DNA of 64,000 nt from Candidatus Bathyarchaeota archaeon (GTDB taxonomy: Archaea; Thermoproteota; Bathyarchaeia; Bathyarchaeales; Bathycorpusculaceae): NCBI GenBank assembly GCA_963811105.1, contig CAWEPZ010000002.1, forward strand, positions 160,001 to 224,000, written 5' to 3'. This document shows, piece after piece, positions 49,885 to 59,228 of the stretch; position 1 is the first letter of the stretch, and the number at the start of each line of letters is the position of its first letter. A program made the translations under genes and the position numbers. A model generated the notes under the pieces. It had not been told where the DNA came from and made no database searches. It was given only the letters and a program-made list of their open reading frames with translations.

Positions 49885-52575
49885 ATGAATCTAAATAAAA
49901 AAAACCTAACTTTTGCAATATTCGTTTCAGCTCTAATGATAGCTTCTATGATCGTTATTATCGTACCAGTAAGAGCGCAACAAGGAGTAACTATTGGAAC
50001 AGCACAAACTCCCACTACAGGCGGGCCTGTACCAGCAGGCGTAACTCCAAGCTTATCACTTAATACAATAGCATACATGAGTTTCTCACCGAACCCGATA
50101 GGCGTTGGACAGCAGTTACTAGTAAACATTTGGCTGCAACCGGCAACTCAGGTCAATCGAGCACACACCGGATACACCGTAATAATTACAAAGCCAGATG
50201 GAACAACTGAGACTGTTGGACCCTTGGTTTCTTTCCAAGCAGATACAACAGCATGGTTTACCTACTCGCCTGATGTAGCAGGTAACTATACACTTCAATT
50301 CTTCTTTGCAGGTGACTATTATCCAGCAGGATACTATTTCCAAGGACTCAAGGCCAATACAACCCAATCTGGAACCATCATTGTCTCAGCTGGCACAAGC
50401 ACCAACACCGGTTTCAATGCTACCCAAGATGTCTACTATATGCCTTCAAATACCGACAAATACACTCTTACCGTCCAACAAGATCAAGTGACTAGTTGGC
50501 AACCCACACCGCTCCCAGGGCTAGGGGATTACTGGACAAGACCAATCCACCCAGATAACAGAGAATGGTGGGTAATCGGCGGAAACGACCCTAATAACGA
50601 AGTCGGAGGCGGCACAGGAACACCAGGCTGGCCAGACAACACTAACGTATACTCTAGCAACTACAAATTCGTGCCCTATGTTACAGGCCCAACCAGCGCA
50701 CACGTAGTATGGAGATTACAAGGTGCATTAGACGGTATATTTGGCGGACTAATTGACGGAGCTTACACCACAGCCCAAGCACCAGACGTGGACTTTTCAG
50801 GTGCAGCCTTTACATTCGGATACACTGGTCCAAGCAACGGAGGAAACCCGGCAATTGTATTTGACGGAAGAACTTACAATTCAATCGTAAAACAGGTCGA
50901 CGGCGTAACACAAACCGTCTGGGAATGCGCTGACATACGTACAGGACAAGTCTACTGGGATCTAACAAACGTTGCTCACCCGCCAACACTGATTTCATAC
51001 GCTGAAAATTCGCCGCCAGTACCAGGAGGATTAGGACGAACCGACAGAACAACTGTGAGTCTCTTATACTTAGGCTCAAACCTTGTTACAAAATACAACC
51101 CAATAACAGGCGCAATCACACTTAACGCGACAATTCCAAGTCTCGGATCCAGCACTCTATACGCTGACCCATATGTTCTATCAGTTCAGACACTTGGAAG
51201 CGGAGCAAGCACACAATATCGCTTAATAAACTGGACACTCCAAGGACTTGGTACAAACACCACGGCATTTCCCACTAGCAACGTAATAAGCAACATAACT
51301 TTCCCGTTCAACAGCATAGGCACCGCAGACTTTGAAACCATGATAGCCATCCAGTCAACAGCCAGTTCTCCAGCTGCAACCGGAGTAGCCTCGGACGTTT
51401 CAATAATGGGCGTTTCCTTGACATCAGGAAAATTGCTCTGGAATGAATCATCAGGCGTTGGTTACCCAATCTTCAGCGGACTAGGACTTGCAGATCACGG
51501 AAAATACGCAAACCGCTTTGACGATGGTCACTTCTATTGTTATGACGAAGCAACAGGCAAACTGCTCTGGAAGAGTCAAATCTCAAGCATCCCATGGGGA
51601 ACATTCGGCGCGTACCAAGATGAATCAGCTTACGGCCTCATATTCTACAACCAATATGACGGCATCGTTGCATACGATTGGAATACAGGAAATGTAGCTT
51701 GGCACTATGAAGCACCCGCAGTACCCTTTGAAACCCCGTACCTGACAAACGGCGTTGGAAACCCAACCAACTCAAGTCAAGGGCAATCCTTCTTCAGCGG
51801 AAGTGTCATCGCAGACGGAATGGTATACACCTATGCAGTTGAGCACTCACCTACTGCTCCATTGACCAGAGGCTGGGACACATATGCAATTAACGCTACA
51901 ACCGGTGCTCTTATATGGAAAACCTTAGGTTCGATGATTCCAGGCGTTGTCGCAGACGGCTACTTAACAGCAACCAACTACTATGACGGATACATGTACA
52001 CCTTTGGCATGGGACAAAGCGCAACTACAGTAACAGCACCACTCAACCAAATCGTTGTAGGACAAAATGTTGCAATAACAGGCACAGTGTCAGACAAATC
52101 TCCATCAACTCTGCAAACTCCAGAATATGCACCAGGCACAAACGTTCCTTGTGTTTCACACGATTCAATGGGTGACTTTATGGCATACCTATTCCAGCAA
52201 GCGCCACGACCAGCAAACCTCACCGGAGTTCCTGTCTCAATCGACGTTGTTGATCCTAACGGAAACTCAGTGCACATTGCTACCCCAACAAGTGACGGCA
52301 ATACAGGTGTTTTCGGCTCCACGTGGACTCCAACAATCCCAGGTGAATACAAGATATACGCAAGCTTTGCAGGTGATGATTCATACGGGTTCTCAACAGC
52401 TGCTACCTTTGCAACAGTAACGCAAGCCCAAGCCTCTCCAGCACCAACAGCAACAACAACAACTCAAACAACAAGCGTAACCATGAGTGACTTCGTATCA
52501 TACTTCGTTGTAGGCATAATAGTGATAATAATCGCAATCGCAATAGTCGGCGCATTAATCCTAAGAAAACACTAA
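49885..52575 (+). CDS. Secreted PQQ-like beta-propeller surface protein with C-terminal TM anchor
   Basis: Signal peptide; PNPIGVGQ Ig-like domain; repeated (D/N)A.TG.L.W blades; C-terminal TM + RKH. Confidence 0.85.
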   Translation: MNLNKKNLTFAIFVSALMIASMIVIIVPVRAQQGVTIGTAQTPTTGGPVPAGVTPSLSLNTIAYMSFSPNPIGVGQQLLVNIWLQPATQVNRAHTGYTVIITKPDGTTETVGPLVSFQADTTAWFTYSPDVAGNYTLQFFFAGDYYPAGYYFQGLKANTTQSGTIIVSAGTSTNTGFNATQDVYYMPSNTDKYTLTVQQDQVTSWQPTPLPGLGDYWTRPIHPDNREWWVIGGNDPNNEVGGGTGTPGWPDNTNVYSSNYKFVPYVTGPTSAHVVWRLQGALDGIFGGLIDGAYTTAQAPDVDFSGAAFTFGYTGPSNGGNPAIVFDGRTYNSIVKQVDGVTQTVWECADIRTGQVYWDLTNVAHPPTLISYAENSPPVPGGLGRTDRTTVSLLYLGSNLVTKYNPITGAITLNATIPSLGSSTLYADPYVLSVQTLGSGASTQYRLINWTLQGLGTNTTAFPTSNVISNITFPFNSIGTADFETMIAIQSTASSPAATGVASDVSIMGVSLTSGKLLWNESSGVGYPIFSGLGLADHGKYANRFDDGHFYCYDEATGKLLWKSQISSIPWGTFGAYQDESAYGLIFYNQYDGIVAYDWNTGNVAWHYEAPAVPFETPYLTNGVGNPTNSSQGQSFFSGSVIADGMVYTYAVEHSPTAPLTRGWDTYAINATTGALIWKTLGSMIPGVVADGYLTATNYYDGYMYTFGMGQSATTVTAPLNQIVVGQNVAITGTVSDKSPSTLQTPEYAPGTNVPCVSHDSMGDFMAYLFQQAPRPANLTGVPVSIDVVDPNGNSVHIATPTSDGNTGVFGSTWTPTIPGEYKIYASFAGDDSYGFSTAATFATVTQAQASPAPTATTTTQTTSVTMSDFVSYFVVGIIVIIIAIAIVGALILRKH

Positions 52576-53017: not shown

Positions 53018-53578
53018 ATGGGTTGCCACGGCGGTTTCTCACTAGACGAAACAACAAGACGTTCATGGTACAAACCAGAAAACATCTTACGAAACCTAAG
53101 CGCAGGTATGGTTTTTGCTGACATAGGATGCGGCGACGGATTCTTCAGCATTTTAGCTGCAAAAAAAGTCGGCGTAACAGGTAGAGTATACTCTGCAGAT
53201 ATTGATGCGTCAGCGATAGAAAAGCTCAAGCGGAAAGCGGAAAATGAAGGTTTAAAAAACATCACCGCCGAAATTGGTGTTGCTGAAGAAACCGTTTTGT
53301 GCACCGAATGTGCTGATTTCGTTTTCTACAGTATGGTGCTTCATGATTTCGCTGACCCAGCAAAAGTGTTGCAAAATGCTCGAAAAATGATTAAGCCTAC
53401 TGGTAGGTCTAGTTAATTTGGATTGGAAAAAACAAGAAATGACTTTTGGTCCACCCGTTAAAATTAGATTCAGCCAAGAACACGCGTCAACTCTAATTCA
53501 GGAGGCAGGCTTCCAATTAGTCAGTCTTAAAGATGCTGGGAAATATCATTATATTTTGACTGCTAAGCCTTTGCCGTG
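53018..53578 (+). CDS. Class I SAM methyltransferase, split by a +1 frameshift at ~53408
   Basis: ADIGCGDGFF and LHDF.DP motifs; the +1 frame continues LVNLDWKKQEMTFGPP...YILTAKPLP*. Confidence 0.8.
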
Positions 53579-53583
53579 AAAAG

Positions 53584-54189
53584 TTAGGTTGATTCAGCTT
53601 TTGCGTAGAGCTCAAGTAGATCTCGTTTGAACAGTTCAGGGTCGTTTTTGTAGGCGGAGTGTCCTGCTCCATTATAGATTAAGAGTTTAGAGTTAGGCAG
53701 CTTGCCAGCTAAAGTTCTCATATCTTCTCCTGATATGATGTTGTCGTTTGAACCCCAAATTACCTTAACTGGAAAGTTGAAGTTGCTATAAGCTTTCACT
53801 AGTTCTTCATCAAGTATTCTAGAAGGTCCAATTAAAAGCAAGCTTTTAACAGGAAACCTTGCAGCATACTTCAATGCGATGTGACCGCCCAAGCTGGCGC
53901 CTACAATAAAAGGCACCGTTGTTCCGAACACGCTCTTTATTGCGTCAGCGGCAAATGTAACGTTAGTTTCGACGTTTCTGGTTTTGGGTTGGCAGCTGCT
54001 TCTTAGCCCATACGGCATATCTAGAGCCAAAAATGGTATACGCTTTGCAATCAATAAATCTGTTACTCCAATCTGTTGCCAAATGTCCATTGTATAAGAT
54101 AATCCATGCAGAAAAACGATTGGAACTCCTGGTGAATCGAAATACAAAGCATTGCATTTACGGCCAGCCAAAGTTAATGTTTTTTCCAT
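53584..54189 (-). CDS. Alpha/beta hydrolase
   Basis: VFLHG, nucleophile elbow GASLGG, WGSND and GAGH motifs. Confidence 0.9.
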   Translation of the reverse strand: MEKTLTLAGRKCNALYFDSPGVPIVFLHGLSYTMDIWQQIGVTDLLIAKRIPFLALDMPYGLRSSCQPKTRNVETNVTFAADAIKSVFGTTVPFIVGASLGGHIALKYAARFPVKSLLLIGPSRILDEELVKAYSNFNFPVKVIWGSNDNIISGEDMRTLAGKLPNSKLLIYNGAGHSAYKNDPELFKRDLLELYAKAEST

Positions 54190-54287: not shown

Positions 54288-54767
54288 TTGAGTGTTAAGG
54301 TCGGCGACAAAGCCCCAGACTTCAAGTTGCCATCACAAATGGGCGACGATGTGATGCTTTCAGAATTTTTCGATAAAAAAAATGTAGTTTTATATTTTTA
54401 CCCTAAAGATGAAACCCCCGGTTGCATCAAAGAGGCTTGCACGTTTAGAGACAGTTATGAAGAATTGGCGAATTTAGGTGCCGAGGTGCTTGGTGTTAGC
54501 GGTCAAAGTGTTGCGTCGCATAAATCTTTCGCAAGCCATTATGGTTTACCCTTCATCCTGTTAAGCGATGAGAATAACAAGGTTCGTAAACTGTATGGTG
54601 TTCCATCAACCATGGGTCTAATTCCTGGACGCGTAACCTACATTATTGATAAGAAAGGCATTGTCAGGCATATTTTCTCCTCGCAAGCGCAGTCGCAAAG
54701 GCACGTGGAAGAAGCGAAGAAAACGCTTCAGGAGCTTGAAAAAGAAGAGAAGGTTACCTCTGTTTAG
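54288..54767 (+). CDS. bcp: Peroxiredoxin, BCP/PrxQ type
   Basis: GDKAPDF and YFYPKDETPGCIKEAC.FRD motifs. Confidence 0.92.
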   Translation: MSVKVGDKAPDFKLPSQMGDDVMLSEFFDKKNVVLYFYPKDETPGCIKEACTFRDSYEELANLGAEVLGVSGQSVASHKSFASHYGLPFILLSDENNKVRKLYGVPSTMGLIPGRVTYIIDKKGIVRHIFSSQAQSQRHVEEAKKTLQELEKEEKVTSV

Positions 54768-54786
54768 GTGAATAAGTCGGGTACGC

Positions 54787-56023
54787 ATGTTGAATTTATT
54801 TAATACTCTTACGCGAAAAATCGAGCCATTCAATCCAACTGAAGATATGGAAGTTAAAATGTACACTTGTGGTCCCTCGACTTATCAGCGAGCGCACATA
54901 GGGAATTACCGTACTTTTGCTTTCGAAGATATTCTTCAACGGTACTTGGAATACCTGGGCTATAGTGTTAAGCGGCTTATGACATTGACAGATGTGGAAG
55001 ACAAAGCAATAGCTCAGGCAAAAAAAGAAAAATTGACTGTTGAAGAATTAACGAGTAAAAACGAAGCCGCTTTCTTTAAAGATTTTGAACTTCTAAAAAT
55101 CAAGGCACCTGATTACCCCGTAAGAGCTTCCTCAGCTGTGGATCAATCAGCAAAACTAATCGCTCAACTTTTGAAGAAAGGATATGCGTACTGGTATACT
55201 TATGAGGGCGTGAAAAACGTTTACTTTGATCCCTTAAAATTCGGTGGTTTCGGGAAACTTGCTCATCTGGACTTGAGCAAATGGCCAAAAAAGAAGCGAC
55301 GTTTCCACAAAGACACATACCCAGGAACCCCATGGAACATGGGTGACTTCATTGTTTGGCATGGCTGCGGACAGGACAACGTGTGCTATCAAACGCCAAT
55401 TGGGAGCGGTAGGCCAGCATGGAACATTCAGGATGCAGCCATAGTGACTAAGCATCTCGGTTTTTCGATTGATGTTGGTTGTGGAGGAATTGACAATTTA
55501 GTTAGGCATCATGACTATACGCTTGCCATCTCTGAAGCTGTAAGTGGTAACCAGTTTTCGCGTTATTGGCTTCATGGCGGTCACCTGTTTGTGAACGGCA
55601 AAAAAATGTCCAAAAGCGCTGGCAACGTGTATTATCCAAGCGACTTATATACCAAGGGTTTTAGCGGTGTCCAGCTAAGATTCTTCCTCATTTATGGACC
55701 TTATAGAAACAAACTAAATTTCACATTTGAACGGCTTATCAAAACTAGTCAGAAGCTCGATTCCTTCAAACGCATGATTAAGGACTTGGAGGAACAGAAA
55801 TCAGAAGGTTCCAGTTCAGAGGCAAATAAGCTCGCCGAAACCATTCTTCCCGTCTTTGAAGCTGCAATGGATAACGATTTGGATGTAAAAACTGCTTTCG
55901 ATAACCTGTACGAAACAATCAGTGAAATACACAGAAAGCGTGAAACATTAAATTAAGAAAAATATAAAAAATGTAATGAATAATTTGCGCATGATTGATT
56001 CTGTATTTCAATGTATCTTCTGA
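54787..56023 (+). CDS. Cysteinyl-tRNA synthetase-like paralogue (divergent; +1 frameshift near 55953)
   Basis: CGPS, HIGN and KMSKS retained; WHIEC replaced by WNIQD and HHENE by HHDYT; the +1 frame adds KKNIKNVMNNLRMIDSVFQCIF*; no anticodon-binding domain. Confidence 0.8.
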
Positions 56024-56036
56024 CAGTTTTATTTGC

Positions 56037-56276
56037 TTACGTTAAGTCGCCGACCAGTTTGACTCTCTTAAAATTTTCTTCTCTATGTGGAGCCATCTCT
56101 AATTCTTCGGTTAAGTCTTTGCCGGCTTCATGCATTCCCAAGTGGTCTCCATCAAGCCAAAAACTGCTCTGGGATACATCGTAGACTTTGCCTTTGTAGG
56201 CTAAGTAAGCTGGTTTACCGTTTTTTCCGTTATTTGTTTCAAGTTCTTGCCTTGTTACTTTTTTTATTTCAGTCAA
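56037..56276 (-). CDS. Cytochrome b5-like heme/steroid-binding protein
   Basis: ELETNNGKNG.PAYLAYKGKVYDVS...W..G.H...HEAGKDLT...APH. Confidence 0.88.
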   Translation of the reverse strand: MTEIKKVTRQELETNNGKNGKPAYLAYKGKVYDVSQSSFWLDGDHLGMHEAGKDLTEELEMAPHREENFKRVKLVGDLT

Positions 56277-56343
56277 AAAGATTCCTTCTCTACACTTAGG
56301 AAAGTTAGAAACTTGTATTTTAAATGGTTTACGGCTTAGTTAC

Positions 56344-57402
56344 TTATGCTGAGATGGTTGTTGATTGGTAAGAAGCGTTTATGTTGATTGAGCCGATGTT
56401 GGTTTTTAGGGTTATTATGAAGTTGCTTTCAGCTGGGTAGTTGTTTGATTGTATAGGTGACTTGTTTCCTGAAAAGTTGTTCACGTTGGTTCTTATTGAT
56501 CCAATGTCTGTTCTCGATTCGATTCTTGCTGCAACACCATCATCAATAATCATTGATAAGTCAACTGAACCAGTATTTGTAGAAGCGTTCATTTGCACGT
56601 TTCCTGGTAGCGTTTGTTTTTCATTTATGTCCATGTTTACTTTGCCCGTATTTGTTTGAAGGTTAAATGTACGGTTACCTTCCACGTTTGCTTGGTTCAT
56701 GCTAAACATGACGACTCCCGTTGAAGTTTTAAGTGATATGTCACCTTCAATTACGGTTCCATTTTGCAGGTCTGCTTGTACTTCGCCTGTGTTGGATTTG
56801 AGGTTTAAGGATTCAAAGGTTGCATGTTGAGTTTCATTTAGCTTGATTAAACCAGTTTGCGTAGTTATGTTAAGGTTCAGAAGCATTGATGGGTTCAGAT
56901 AAATGTCGCAGATTACTCTCTGTGCCCTTGTGAAACGGTCAGTTATGGCGATCTTCGCGTTAACTGTTAACACTTTTCCCAATGTTTCATTAGTGAAGCT
57001 TATTTGGACTGGATTTTTTGAGCCGAAAATACCTGTTGAAACATTGCCAGATGTATACATAACGATTGTTCTATCACTTACGTTTTGAGCAATAATATTT
57101 ACTTGGGCAATGTCAGCGTAAAAATTTAGATTTAGAGTCTTAACGTTTGGCTGATTTATTTCATTTGTTTGCCCTAAATTTACTACATTAATTGGAGCAA
57201 AAATTAAAATGCTGATAATTACTGCTGAAATTAATATGGCAACCAGGACGATGCCCGCTATAACGAGTGGTTCACTTCTCATTGGTCTGTGCGCTGGAGG
57301 CGGTGCAGGCGGATAGGTGTAAGTGGCAACTGGTGTTCCGCAGTTAGGGCAGAACTGTGCGTTTTCTTCAAGTTTAGTTCCGCATTTTCGACAATAAGGC
57401 AA
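56344..57402 (-). CDS. Zinc-ribbon + TM + DUF4097/adhesin-like beta-repeat membrane protein
   Basis: YCRKCG...FCPNCG; one TM; repeated T.TG.V units. Confidence 0.8.
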   Translation of the reverse strand: MPYCRKCGTKLEENAQFCPNCGTPVATYTYPPAPPPAHRPMRSEPLVIAGIVLVAILISAVIISILIFAPINVVNLGQTNEINQPNVKTLNLNFYADIAQVNIIAQNVSDRTIVMYTSGNVSTGIFGSKNPVQISFTNETLGKVLTVNAKIAITDRFTRAQRVICDIYLNPSMLLNLNITTQTGLIKLNETQHATFESLNLKSNTGEVQADLQNGTVIEGDISLKTSTGVVMFSMNQANVEGNRTFNLQTNTGKVNMDINEKQTLPGNVQMNASTNTGSVDLSMIIDDGVAARIESRTDIGSIRTNVNNFSGNKSPIQSNNYPAESNFIITLKTNIGSININASYQSTTISA

Positions 57403-57527
57403 CTGTGAAACCTCAAATACGGGTATTGTATGTTGGAAAATTTAAGCGTTACCGCGAAATCCAATCTTTAACTATTGTTATAGCAATTTTAATAAGGTCG
57501 GCACTAAACGATTTGTTGGAGATACGT

Positions 57528-59228
57528 TTGCCTGAAAAAGTTTTAGTTACATCCGCTTGGCCATACATTAACGTCACGCCTCACCTCGGTAACCTTGTCG
57601 GCTCAGTTCTATCAGCCGACGTAGCAGCCCGATATTACAGGCTAAAAGGTGATGATGTTTTGATGGTTAGCGGTTCGGATACGCATGGTACACCTATCGA
57701 GGTGGAAGCAATAAGGCAAGGCATAAGACCTAAAGAATTAACGGATCGTAACCACGCTCGCGTGGCCGAGCTTTTCCGTAGATGGGCCGCTTCCTTTGAC
57801 AATTATACCAGCACCGAAAGCCCCATACACAAGGAATTTGTTCAAAAAACCCTGCTTGAAATTCAAAAGAACGGCTACCTCTTCGAGCAAGACACACAGA
57901 TGCTTTACTGTGAGCATGACCAGCGATTTTTGCCCGATCGATTCGTGGAAGGCAAATGCCCCTACTGCGGCTGCGAAAAAGCCCGAGGCGACCAATGCGA
58001 TATATGTGGAAGGCTTCTGGAACCAACAATGCTTATTGAGCCTTATTGCGTAATCTGCAAAAATAAGCCCACAGTAAAGACTACTCGTCACTGGTACATA
58101 GATCTCTCAAAACTCTCTGACCCTTTAACAGAATACCTAAAGAACAATCAGCAGTTGCCGGTTAATGTCAAAAATTTCAGCTTAAACTGGATAAAAGAAG
58201 GCTTAAAACCAAGGGCCGTCACCCGTGATGTAGAATGGGGCATTCCAGCACCTTTCCCTGGTGCAGAGGGCAAAACTATCTACGTTTGGGTAGACGCCGT
58301 CTTAGGTTACATTTCCGCCACCATTGAGCAATCAGAGCGCATGGGGCAGCCGGAGATGTGGCGTGAGTTCTGGTTTAACAGGGAAGCCAAAACCCTCTAT
58401 TTCGTGGGAAAAGACAACATCCCATTCCATACTATAATCCTCCCAGCTCTGTTGTTGGCTTCAGGCCAAGGCTATAACTTGCCATGGAACGTTTCCGCTA
58501 CCGAATTTCTCCAGTTCAAAGGGCAAAAAGCGTCAAAAAGCCAAAGAGTCGGCATTTGGATAGATGAAGCTCTCGAAATGTTTCCCGTAGATTACTGGCG
58601 CTTCTTCCTCATTGCTACAAGACCTGAAAGCAAAGACACCAACTTTACGTGGGCCCTCTTTACAGACAAAATTAATGCTGACCTAAATGACACCTTTGGC
58701 AACTTTATCCACCGCACCCTCAGCTTCATAACTTCAAAATTCGATGGCGCAATTCCTCAGCCGACAAAGTTGGATAAGGATGATGAAGCAATACTTCAAG
58801 CATTAAAGGCGAAGGTTGAACAAGCTGCCAAAGAAATAGAAGATTCATGGTTGCAATCTGCTGCAAACACGCTCATTTCGATAAGTCGTCTTGGTAACCA
58901 ATACCTCAATACTAAGGAACCATGGAATCTCATGAAAACTGACAAAGAAAAAGCAGGCACAATATTTTACGTTGCCGCACAAGTAGTCAAAGCGATCACA
59001 GTGGTCTCTTCGCCCTTCATTCCACAGACGGCTGAACAATTATGGCAAACACTGCAGCTACCTGGAAGCGTGGAAAAAAAGAGTTGGGCAGAAGCTTTGA
59101 TGCCGCTTGAGGCAGGGCACAAAATAGCCAAGCCAAAACCGCTCTTCCACAAAATAGAAGCTGATGAGGCAAAACTAGACGAGCAGTTAGCAGAAATCAG
59201 AGCAAAACTAGGAACCCAACCAAAATAG
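57528..59228 (+). CDS. metG: Methionine--tRNA ligase
   Basis: TSAWPY, HLGN, Zn-knuckle Cys motifs, YVWVDA, GKDNIPFH and KASKS; TTG start. Confidence 0.96.
   Translation: MPEKVLVTSAWPYINVTPHLGNLVGSVLSADVAARYYRLKGDDVLMVSGSDTHGTPIEVEAIRQGIRPKELTDRNHARVAELFRRWAASFDNYTSTESPIHKEFVQKTLLEIQKNGYLFEQDTQMLYCEHDQRFLPDRFVEGKCPYCGCEKARGDQCDICGRLLEPTMLIEPYCVICKNKPTVKTTRHWYIDLSKLSDPLTEYLKNNQQLPVNVKNFSLNWIKEGLKPRAVTRDVEWGIPAPFPGAEGKTIYVWVDAVLGYISATIEQSERMGQPEMWREFWFNREAKTLYFVGKDNIPFHTIILPALLLASGQGYNLPWNVSATEFLQFKGQKASKSQRVGIWIDEALEMFPVDYWRFFLIATRPESKDTNFTWALFTDKINADLNDTFGNFIHRTLSFITSKFDGAIPQPTKLDKDDEAILQALKAKVEQAAKEIEDSWLQSAANTLISISRLGNQYLNTKEPWNLMKTDKEKAGTIFYVAAQVVKAITVVSSPFIPQTAEQLWQTLQLPGSVEKKSWAEALMPLEAGHKIAKPKPLFHKIEADEAKLDEQLAEIRAKLGTQPK

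Follow-up and report, generated by a model that had tools for sequence, protein, structure and literature searches.

A conserved cysteinyl-tRNA synthetase offshoot with an altered amino-acid pocket in Bathyarchaeia: a possible anticodon-blind aminoacyl-RNA ligase

The genome assembly GCA_963811105.1 of a Candidatus Bathyarchaeota archaeon (Bathyarchaeales, Bathycorpusculaceae) encodes, within a 64,000-nucleotide stretch of contig CAWEPZ010000002.1 (positions 160,001 to 224,000 of the forward strand, hereafter the window), a cysteinyl-tRNA synthetase (CysRS) paralogue whose amino-acid pocket is rebuilt. Judged by its sequence, this protein (P0001; 411 amino acids, aa, once a frame break is repaired) is a member of a conserved, so far undescribed CysRS offshoot, and it very probably represents a neofunctionalised accessory adenylate-forming ligase. 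As to its activity, the most far-reaching reading, to which we give a probability of roughly one in five, is that of an aminoacyl-RNA ligase linked to stress, blind to the anticodon and provided with a Cys/Asp/His metal site; its amino acid would possibly not be cysteine, and its acceptor would be an RNA or other nucleic acid different from ordinary, anticodon-read tRNA-Cys.

P0001 is made up of a Rossmann catalytic domain, a connective peptide 1 (CP1) insertion and a stem-contact fold, together with the greater part of the helix bundle. In its 389-aa reading it scored 309.1 bits with the NCBIfam cysS model TIGR00435, whose cut-off is 340, and the match extends over positions 1-377 of the 466 in the model. 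Intact orthologues from five other genomes scored 239-316 bits, all of them below 340; taken together with P0001, the matches ended between model positions 377 and 404. Against TIGR03447, the model for MshC, a tRNA-independent CysRS derivative that acts as the cysteine:GlcN-Ins ligase in making mycothiol, P0001 reached 175.3 bits, the cut-off being 485.1.

Residue equivalences were set by aligning L037, a 76% identical orthologue of the same genus, with phmmer to 1li5 (CysRS of E. coli); the alignment stops at residue 391 of the 461 in the E. coli enzyme. In the E. coli enzyme, zinc held by C28, C209, H234 and E238 selects the cysteine thiolate. The alignment pairs C28 with C28, W212 with W205, N213 with H206, Q215 with E208, D216 with C209, H241/H242 with H234/H235, D243 with E236, Y244 with N237 and T245 with E238. 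Of the four canonical zinc ligands the family keeps C28 and H234, while C209 is Asp and E238 has become T, N, S, I or V; the C209-to-D and E238-to-T exchanges, proposed in a preliminary description made from the sequence alone, are borne out by the alignment. Further pocket changes, in E. coli numbering, are H206N, E208Q, E236D and N237Y, and the CysRS pocket residues C28, W212 and H241 (query numbering) are retained, as are the elements that bind ATP and the amino-acid backbone (HIGN, KMSKS, GG.D, G29, S31 and T68). It should be added that canonical CysRS of the same class also read HIGN. The translated frame has HIGN, KMSKS and CGP intact and carries DVGCGG, VRHHDYT and WNIQD at the places first reported for them.

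An AlphaFold2 model of L037, based on 83 aligned sequences, reached a mean predicted local distance difference test score of 93.9 and a predicted template modelling (TM) score of 0.93. It contains the Rossmann domain and the CP1 insertion as well as the stem-contact fold, and a bundle of four helices extends to residue 407. Foldseek comparison of this model placed CysRS first (8qhp, TM 0.90; 1u0b, 0.88), with MshC at 0.82-0.83.

Relatives of P0001 are numerous. More than 120 clusters were recovered at 73-82% identity, the majority of 411 aa, and in a search of 1.84 billion representative proteins additional members turned up that are 400-425 aa long and 42-57% identical (P0121-P0124, P0128 and P0132). 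The nearest protein-atlas cluster (190 members, 426 aa) is mostly bacterial, with Spirochaetota as the commonest phylum. A pattern scan of genome contigs, dominated by generic KMSKS pattern matches, gave five family members among 80 loci (two Bathyarchaeia, two spirochaetes and one Thermodesulfovibrionales). A DNA-pattern scan of metagenomes (WN[IV]QD, 72 bases, HHDY) found at least 120 stretches; 102 loci from it contained 93 family open reading frames (ORFs), which formed 52 groups at 70% identity and of which 76 were complete. The pattern [KP]MSK[SRKN] was present in 90 and the CP1 loop pattern in 85 of the 93. Since these loci were retrieved with WNIQD and HHDY, they do not give independent support for the conservation of those two motifs. 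Three long proteins with a CysRS-like part in the C-terminal half were also among the best representative matches (P0129, 768 aa; P0254, 783 aa; P0148, 858 aa); P0129 and P0254 keep WH[LI]EC and were ruled out as family members.

Conservation of the changed pocket was assessed in an alignment with 24 family rows reaching down to 42% identity. N213, Q215, D216, R240, D243 and Y244 were invariant in all of them, and 50 canonical rows have in the same columns H (100%), E (100%), C (94%), P (92%), E (78%) and N (76%). Other family-specific states are S31, S115, F155, W166, P167, T177, an inserted G180, W183, G186 and Y283. Among near-identical metagenome contigs, 33 listed differences comprised 19 synonymous and 14 non-synonymous changes (eight further differences lie outside the listing), which over 245 synonymous and 922 non-synonymous sites corresponds to a ratio of non-synonymous to synonymous polymorphism (pN/pS) of about 0.2 for the listed differences; between residues 171 and 249 all 11 of them were synonymous. 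The paralogue is under purifying selection, and since a large family shares the pocket substitutions, it is not decaying; the possibility that they would be absent from relatives, raised at the outset, did not hold.

The paralogue accompanies a complete CysRS. The source assembly (G000; 15 contigs, 3.49 Mb) encodes a canonical cysS at C2:404697-405914 (460 bits), which reads GRPGWHIECSAM and FPHHENE and is 37% identical to P0001, and SepRS was not found in this genome. Among 301 genomes of the class Bathyarchaeia, 17 carry a close relative of P0001 (53-100% identity and at least 457 bits, plus the broken copy of genome G175); the remaining matches in the 301 genomes are canonical CysRS at 34-42% identity, so that two clear modes are seen. 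The carriers belong to the window's genus (8 of 15 genomes), to g6 (one of six), g30 (six of seven), and g46 and g79 (one genome each). A second, canonical-type match is present in each of the 17, at 36-39% identity among the ten listed, and five further carriers (two Bathyarchaeia and three bacteria) all have a full cysS (424-509 bits) next to a paralogue scoring 239-316 bits. With a full cysS in 22 of 22 carrier genomes examined, the designation as a paralogue stands, and the notion of P0001 as the sole cysteine-charging gene fails. From these gene sets the protein is seen to work beside the housekeeping CysRS and not instead of it, and its job is probably other than routine protein synthesis.

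In MshC the substrate's alpha-amine is contacted by T46, T83 and the carbonyl of G44, as given in the available text of PMC9736012. These residues correspond in our alignment to S31, T68 and G29 of the family, all of which are kept, and this makes an L-alpha-amino acid the likely substrate still. Zinc in MshC has three protein ligands (C43, C231 and H256) plus the substrate thiol (same text, PMC9736012), and by analogy the metal site of the family could be formed by C28, D216 and H241. The residue following HHDY, i.e. the E. coli E238 position, is T in 53, N in 18, S in 11, I in 9 and V in 2 of the 93 ORFs; as it varies in this manner, it is on sequence grounds not a metal ligand in the family.

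An Asp at position 209 is also seen in some full-length CysRS, which read WHIEDTA followed by HHE[A/C]EI (L126/L136, from a Thermoplasmata metagenome-assembled genome (MAG), P0166, P0220 and P0242); L072 and L129, considered for the same group, were ruled out, the alignment showing Cys there. In genome G301 the top cysS match (419 bits) is such a WHIEDTA form, and it occurs beside a divergent second copy, L141 (242 bits), which keeps Cys and has no recognisable C-terminal domain. The WHIEDTA forms retain H206 and E208, so that H206N and E208Q are not needed to fit Asp209. Cysteine remains the simplest candidate substrate.

All 76 complete family ORFs measure 381-439 aa from the common start, and therefore none carries the C-terminal domain. 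Canonical CysRS copies of Bathyarchaeia are 471-481 aa long and have the C-terminal alpha/beta anticodon-binding domain. The helix bundle is kept in the paralogue (helices 314-407 in the AlphaFold2 model), and this bundle is also counted as an anticodon-binding domain of class Ia enzymes in the consulted part of AARS Online (PMC11580382). The earlier statement that the protein has no anticodon domain thus applies to the C-terminal alpha/beta extension but not to the helix bundle. Overall, the family resembles canonical CysS in its whole-length fold, HIGN-type HIGH motif, KMSKS, C28, W205, H234, alpha-amine contacts, stem-contact fold and helix bundle, and differs from it in a score below cut-off, the changed pocket, a rebuilt CP1, the absent C-terminal alpha/beta domain and the company of a real cysS.

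The family formed a single clade in three trees, with SH-like approximate likelihood ratio test (SH-aLRT) support of 100 in two quick trees and support of 100/100 in a more careful 44-row tree, the bootstrap of which had not fully converged. Bacterial members were nested among archaeal ones, which suggests horizontal transfer between archaea and bacteria within the family. In the careful tree the family grouped at 98/98 with short, domain-less CysRS forms, P0133, P0138, P0147 and P0173 being its nearest relatives. These and four similar proteins (P0153, P0162, P0171 and P0207) are 405-417 aa long, mostly strongly basic, and keep the canonical cysteine ligand; one short form is annotated as cysteine--tRNA ligase in a Micrarchaeia MAG. 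They share with the family its length, end point and basic character, and S31, A74 and S115 are common in five of eight short-form rows. Unlike the family, they retain the canonical C (8/8 rows), N237 and mostly H206 and E208, with some rows deviating, and they may be working CysRS enzymes.

The CP1 motif of CysRS reads the first pair of the acceptor stem and is altered in CysRS*, a tRNA-linked variant, according to the accessible text of Mukai et al. 2017 (PMC5389517). In the present family the loop has been rebuilt into a conserved basic WPKKKRRFHKDTY, which replaces the canonical L-K-A-G-A-R-V type loop. Ten of the 11 family rows have a loop charge of +4 to +6, compared with -2 to 0 in MshC. 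The same tendency is found for the whole protein: net charge was +4 to +25 in the 11 family rows, -18 to -24 in four MshC rows and -24 to +7 in ten rows of full-length CysRS, and the short domain-less forms of a larger alignment had +1 to +43. The median over the 76 complete ORFs was +12, with six at or below 0.

Because of the basic charge and CP1 loop, the 98/98 link to short CysRS forms, the precedent of CysRS* and the lack of MshD and MshB matches in G000, we tentatively and slightly prefer an anticodon-blind RNA acceptor over a small-molecule one. The proposed course of the reaction is as follows. A metal held by Cys28, Asp216 and His241 would help in choosing the amino acid, either cysteine or a small polar one nearly isosteric with it; the enzyme would make the aminoacyl-adenylate and pass the amino acid to an RNA 3' end, either that of tRNA-Cys or another tRNA-like end; the acceptor would be recognised via its acceptor stem alone, with no reading of an anticodon. 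This activity may be part of a damage or oxidative-stress response, as recurrent neighbouring genes suggest. The suggestion of a different substrate or acceptor, made in the preliminary description, is reasonable.

Several observations weigh against such an aminoacyl-RNA ligase. The window's own clade is only mildly basic (+4 to +7), the six ORFs mentioned above are not basic at all, and net charge points to nucleic-acid binding only indirectly. The family is not coupled to any tRNA gene: three unrelated, non-adjacent ones (Asn, Gln and Thr) were found in 101 loci. G000 has a single, ordinary tRNA-Cys(GCA) with G1:C72 and U73, and neither a spare or odd tRNA (ARAGORN and the tRNA-Sec model) nor a UCA tRNA was found in this genome. 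HHDY[T/N/S/I/V] resembles HHE[F/Y]S of MshC, and the protein ends at the same truncation point as that tRNA-independent enzyme. Finally, H206N and E208Q are additional to the ligand exchange, and the amino acid may, judging by these positions, not be cysteine. It should also be mentioned that no tRNA or Rfam match was present near the gene in the window.

The gene neighbourhood was compared over the 93 metagenomic loci, among which no universal operon partner was seen. In the window (Table 1) the paralogue follows a peroxiredoxin gene at a distance of 19 bases, from the end of the latter to the ATG at 54787, and faces a cytochrome b5-like gene; both had been pointed out before and were located by ORF and Pfam analysis. 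The peroxiredoxin scored 107.7 bits against NCBIfam PRK09437, below the cut-off of 140. A same-strand peroxiredoxin directly upstream recurs in 21 loci belonging to only 6 of the 52 lineage groups, so that the proposed operon link is real where it occurs and is not a general feature of the family. In 18 loci the cytochrome b5-like gene is the next one downstream, on the opposite strand, and in 21 loci (6/52 groups) it lies within four genes; being convergent, it is not co-transcribed with the paralogue. The alpha/beta hydrolase was found nearby in 20 loci (5 groups) and the zinc-ribbon membrane protein in 19 (4 groups). The paralogue can also be followed, 11-15 bases away on the same strand, by a Y-family DNA polymerase (10 loci, 3 groups) or directly preceded on the same strand by a MatE efflux pump (5 loci, 4 groups); class I/II aminotransferases and PF0610-like small proteins are neighbours in 4 loci and 4 groups each. 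A uracil-DNA glycosylase stands four genes from the paralogue in the window's genus. Four of these neighbours (peroxiredoxin, translesion polymerase, MatE and glycosylase) belong to damage-response types, and this hints at a stress role for the family.

Table 1. Paralogue, its sequence motifs and adjoining genes, in window coordinates
Feature	Position	Strand	Basis
CysRS-like paralogue (P0001), 389 aa as read	54787..55956	+	PF01406 E 3.3e-74
C28 codon in YTCGPS (CGP motif)	54868-54870	+	ORF translation
HIGN adenylation motif	54895-54906	+	ORF translation
Rebuilt CP1 acceptor loop WPKKKRRFH, residues 166-174	55282..55308	+	family conservation
WNIQD (within GRPAWNIQDAAI) replacing WHIEC	55420-55434	+	alignment to 1li5
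HHDY (within VRHHDYT) replacing HHEN	55507-55518	+	alignment to 1li5
KMSKS loop	55603-55617	+	ORF translation
Family C-terminal tail, 23 residues (ending SVFQCIF) + stop	55952..56023	+	+1 frame, three-frame reading
Bcp/PrxQ-type peroxiredoxin (bcp), 159 aa	54288..54767	+	PF00578 AhpC-TSA E 1.6e-39
Small cytochrome b5-like protein (heme/steroid-binding fold), 79 aa, convergent	56037..56276	-	PF00173 E 8.7e-10
Alpha/beta hydrolase, divergent from bcp	53584..54189	-	PF00561 E 2.3e-13
Zinc-ribbon membrane protein	56344..57402	-	PF13240 E 9.1e-10
Methionyl-tRNA synthetase (MetRS)	57405-59228	+	downstream of cluster

Some further features of these regions may be recorded. The MetRS ORF of the window begins about 40 codons ahead of its relatives' start (...PEKVLVTSAWPY), and this early start is probably artefactual, the first start codon having been chosen. 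An 896-aa ORF immediately upstream of the cluster (49885-52575, + strand) has a hydrophobic segment at its N terminus and a membrane anchor at its C terminus. In one Bathyarchaeia clade (L045-L051, e.g. L047:9263-16284) the paralogue is followed by the Y-family polymerase, by DUF2153 and then by subunits resembling those of formylmethanofuran dehydrogenase, of the molybdopterin, amidohydrolase and GXGXG types, and by methenyl-tetrahydromethanopterin cyclohydrolase.

The strongest competitor of the aminoacyl-RNA ligase is an MshC-like, tRNA-independent ligase, in which the adenylate would be attacked by a small-molecule amine, for instance an amino sugar or some other building block of a low-molecular-weight thiol or redox cofactor; we hold this to be possible but doubtful. 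It would suit a gene placed behind a peroxiredoxin, as in the 21 loci with bcp directly upstream, and the failure to find a dedicated tRNA for the family agrees with it. The likeness to MshC (3c8z, 8hfm) is considerable: both are CysRS derivatives of about 410 aa with matching architecture and C-terminal end (family ...VLQxIF, MshC ...ALLGVxL), both have an aromatic residue at position 237 and both have lost the E238-type ligand, the zinc site of MshC being a three-ligand one in the available text of PMC9736012. The differences concern the pocket, where MshC keeps WH[IV]EC and the family has WNIQD, as well as the score, true MshC of four actinobacterial genomes reaching 672-745 bits and the family 175 against a cut-off of 485. 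Furthermore, MshC is an acidic protein and its CP1 loop is not basic; the family, by contrast, is basic and has a conserved loop rich in K and R. In G000, which is 96.65% complete, the best MshD match had 22.2 bits (cut-off 163) and no MshB/LmbE-type protein matched at E <= 0.001; MshA was not searched. No sugar-pathway or acetyltransferase partner recurs among the 93 loci, and the bcp link covers 6 of 52 groups.

The trees speak to the same question. MshC was set apart from the family in the quick trees as well as in the careful one, where it grouped with actinobacterial CysRS (93/88) and was split from the family side at 100/99. A joint clade of family and MshC was then subjected to the approximately unbiased (AU) test. 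In a 75-row set without actinobacterial CysRS it was not rejected (p-AU 0.538, the constrained tree being 2.7 log-likelihood units, lnL, better than the quick free tree), and in the 44-row set with actinobacterial CysRS it was 44.3 lnL worse and marginally rejected (p-AU 0.029). The tree with CysRS and MshC that had been called for shows the family as one clade; given these two p-AU values, an origin separate from MshC is probable but not firmly shown. MshC thus serves as a precedent as far as the truncation point and the resemblance of HHDY to HHE[F/Y]S are concerned, but not with regard to charge, CP1 loop, MshB/MshD and the 44-row tree, and the thiol-cofactor reading is supported no better than the RNA-acceptor one.

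Less probable by a good distance is an enzyme that transfers its amino acid to no acceptor, and instead makes dinucleoside polyphosphate alarmones or cysteine persulfide, or serves to sense or regulate the status of cysteine or metal when the cell is under stress. The retained ATP motifs and the recurrent stress-gene neighbours are consistent with it. CARS enzymes make cysteine persulfide, and C28D/C209D lowers their protein synthesis, as summarised in the accessible portion of a review (PMC7563103). The family has a natural Asp at position 209. On the other side, the second lysine of the KIIK type, which is the one linked to pyridoxal phosphate, is not kept, the family reading DKAIAQAK. Conservation of the stem-contact fold, helix bundle and CP1 loop together is hard to explain without an acceptor, and nothing tested speaks directly for the absence of transfer.

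A role of the CysRS* type, in which a selenocysteine tRNA-like tRNA-Cys is charged and cysteine enters at UGA selenocysteine codons, is very improbable and close to refuted for G000. CysRS* of Desulfobacterales, compared here by its published description, is likewise a second CysRS copy with no anticodon-binding domain and a changed CP1 motif, and it is encoded beside selC* tRNA-Cys(UCA) and selB* (available text of PMC5389517). Its CP1 motif reads PTVS in that text, in contrast to WPKKKRRFH in the family. Neither an adjacent tRNA nor a selC*- or SelB-like gene was present in 101 family loci, and G000, with one tRNA-Cys(GCA) and no UCA tRNA, has no selenocysteine machinery above cut-off: SepSecS gave no match, the best selD hit was 79.7 bits (cut-off 125) and the best tRNA-Sec hit 40.8 bits (cut-off 47).

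The known CysRS offshoots in the accessible texts are MshC, CysRS* and Zur-regulated copies (PMC9437257, PMC5389517, PMC2770081, PMC2922099, PMC8762117). The Zur-regulated proteobacterial paralogues (Haas et al. 2009, PMC2770081) resemble the family as accessory copies within a stress regulon and, in the part of that paper available to us, keep the zinc ligands; COG0523, znuABC or zur neighbours were not seen among the family loci. A full-text literature search, which missed most subscription journals, found no paper on a WNIQD/HHDY-type family or on a CysRS paralogue of Bathyarchaeia.

A decaying cysS duplicate, suggested by the window's frameshift 22 codons before the family end and by the G175 copy split with a TGA, is scarcely credible in view of changed residues invariant down to 42% identity, a pN/pS of about 0.2, an intact frame in a near-identical contig, and an assembly that also breaks the canonical cysS twice and a methyltransferase once.

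The frame of P0001 stops at 55954-55956, and the conserved tail continues in the next frame from 55952 to a stop at 56021-56023, the break consisting of one extra T at 55953/55954. Joined with its tail, P0001 reaches 411 aa, the commonest length among its relatives, which agrees with the approximately 410 aa expected beforehand. Contigs of four public sequencing runs were compared with the stretch. A contig of run X4 (1017 nt, covering 55740-56300, with four other letter differences) is without one base at 55953, and this restores the 411-aa frame; the contigs of runs X1, X9 and X11 do not span 55953. The canonical cysS of G000 (minus strand; corresponding to L001:1465-2745) reads 426 aa, with the letters of its C-terminal anticodon domain lying downstream in two other frames, and these two apparent frameshifts suggest indel errors in the assembly. 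In the window, an S-adenosylmethionine-dependent methyltransferase is split between different frames on the plus strand (53018-53416, 132 aa, and 53418-53579, 53 aa), relatives being one ORF of 185-187 aa. Since the X4 contig restores the frame and these two genes are broken too, the extra T is a probable assembly error. The break could instead be a true lesion of the strain, the G175 copy being likewise split.

The family is a variant among the aminoacyl-tRNA synthetase (aaRS) paralogues with non-canonical roles, and aaRS offshoots have repeatedly brought new chemistry, as in MshC, GluQRS, the cyclodipeptide synthases and CysRS*. It is widespread, occurring in Bathyarchaeia, spirochaetes and Thermodesulfovibrionales and on at least 120 metagenome contigs, and it joins in one family the loss of an anticodon reader with a naturally occurring exchange of Cys for Asp in the zinc site on which cysteine selection depends. 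Its basic CP1 loop and net charge offer a concrete criterion, open to testing, for telling an RNA acceptor from a small-molecule one. The substrate and acceptor of the family would bear on how amino-acid and tRNA specificity are rewired, and on soil and sediment archaea under oxidative or DNA damage. If the acceptor is indeed a nucleic acid other than ordinary tRNA-Cys, the family would represent a new aaRS-derived activity common to Bathyarchaeia and anaerobic bacteria.

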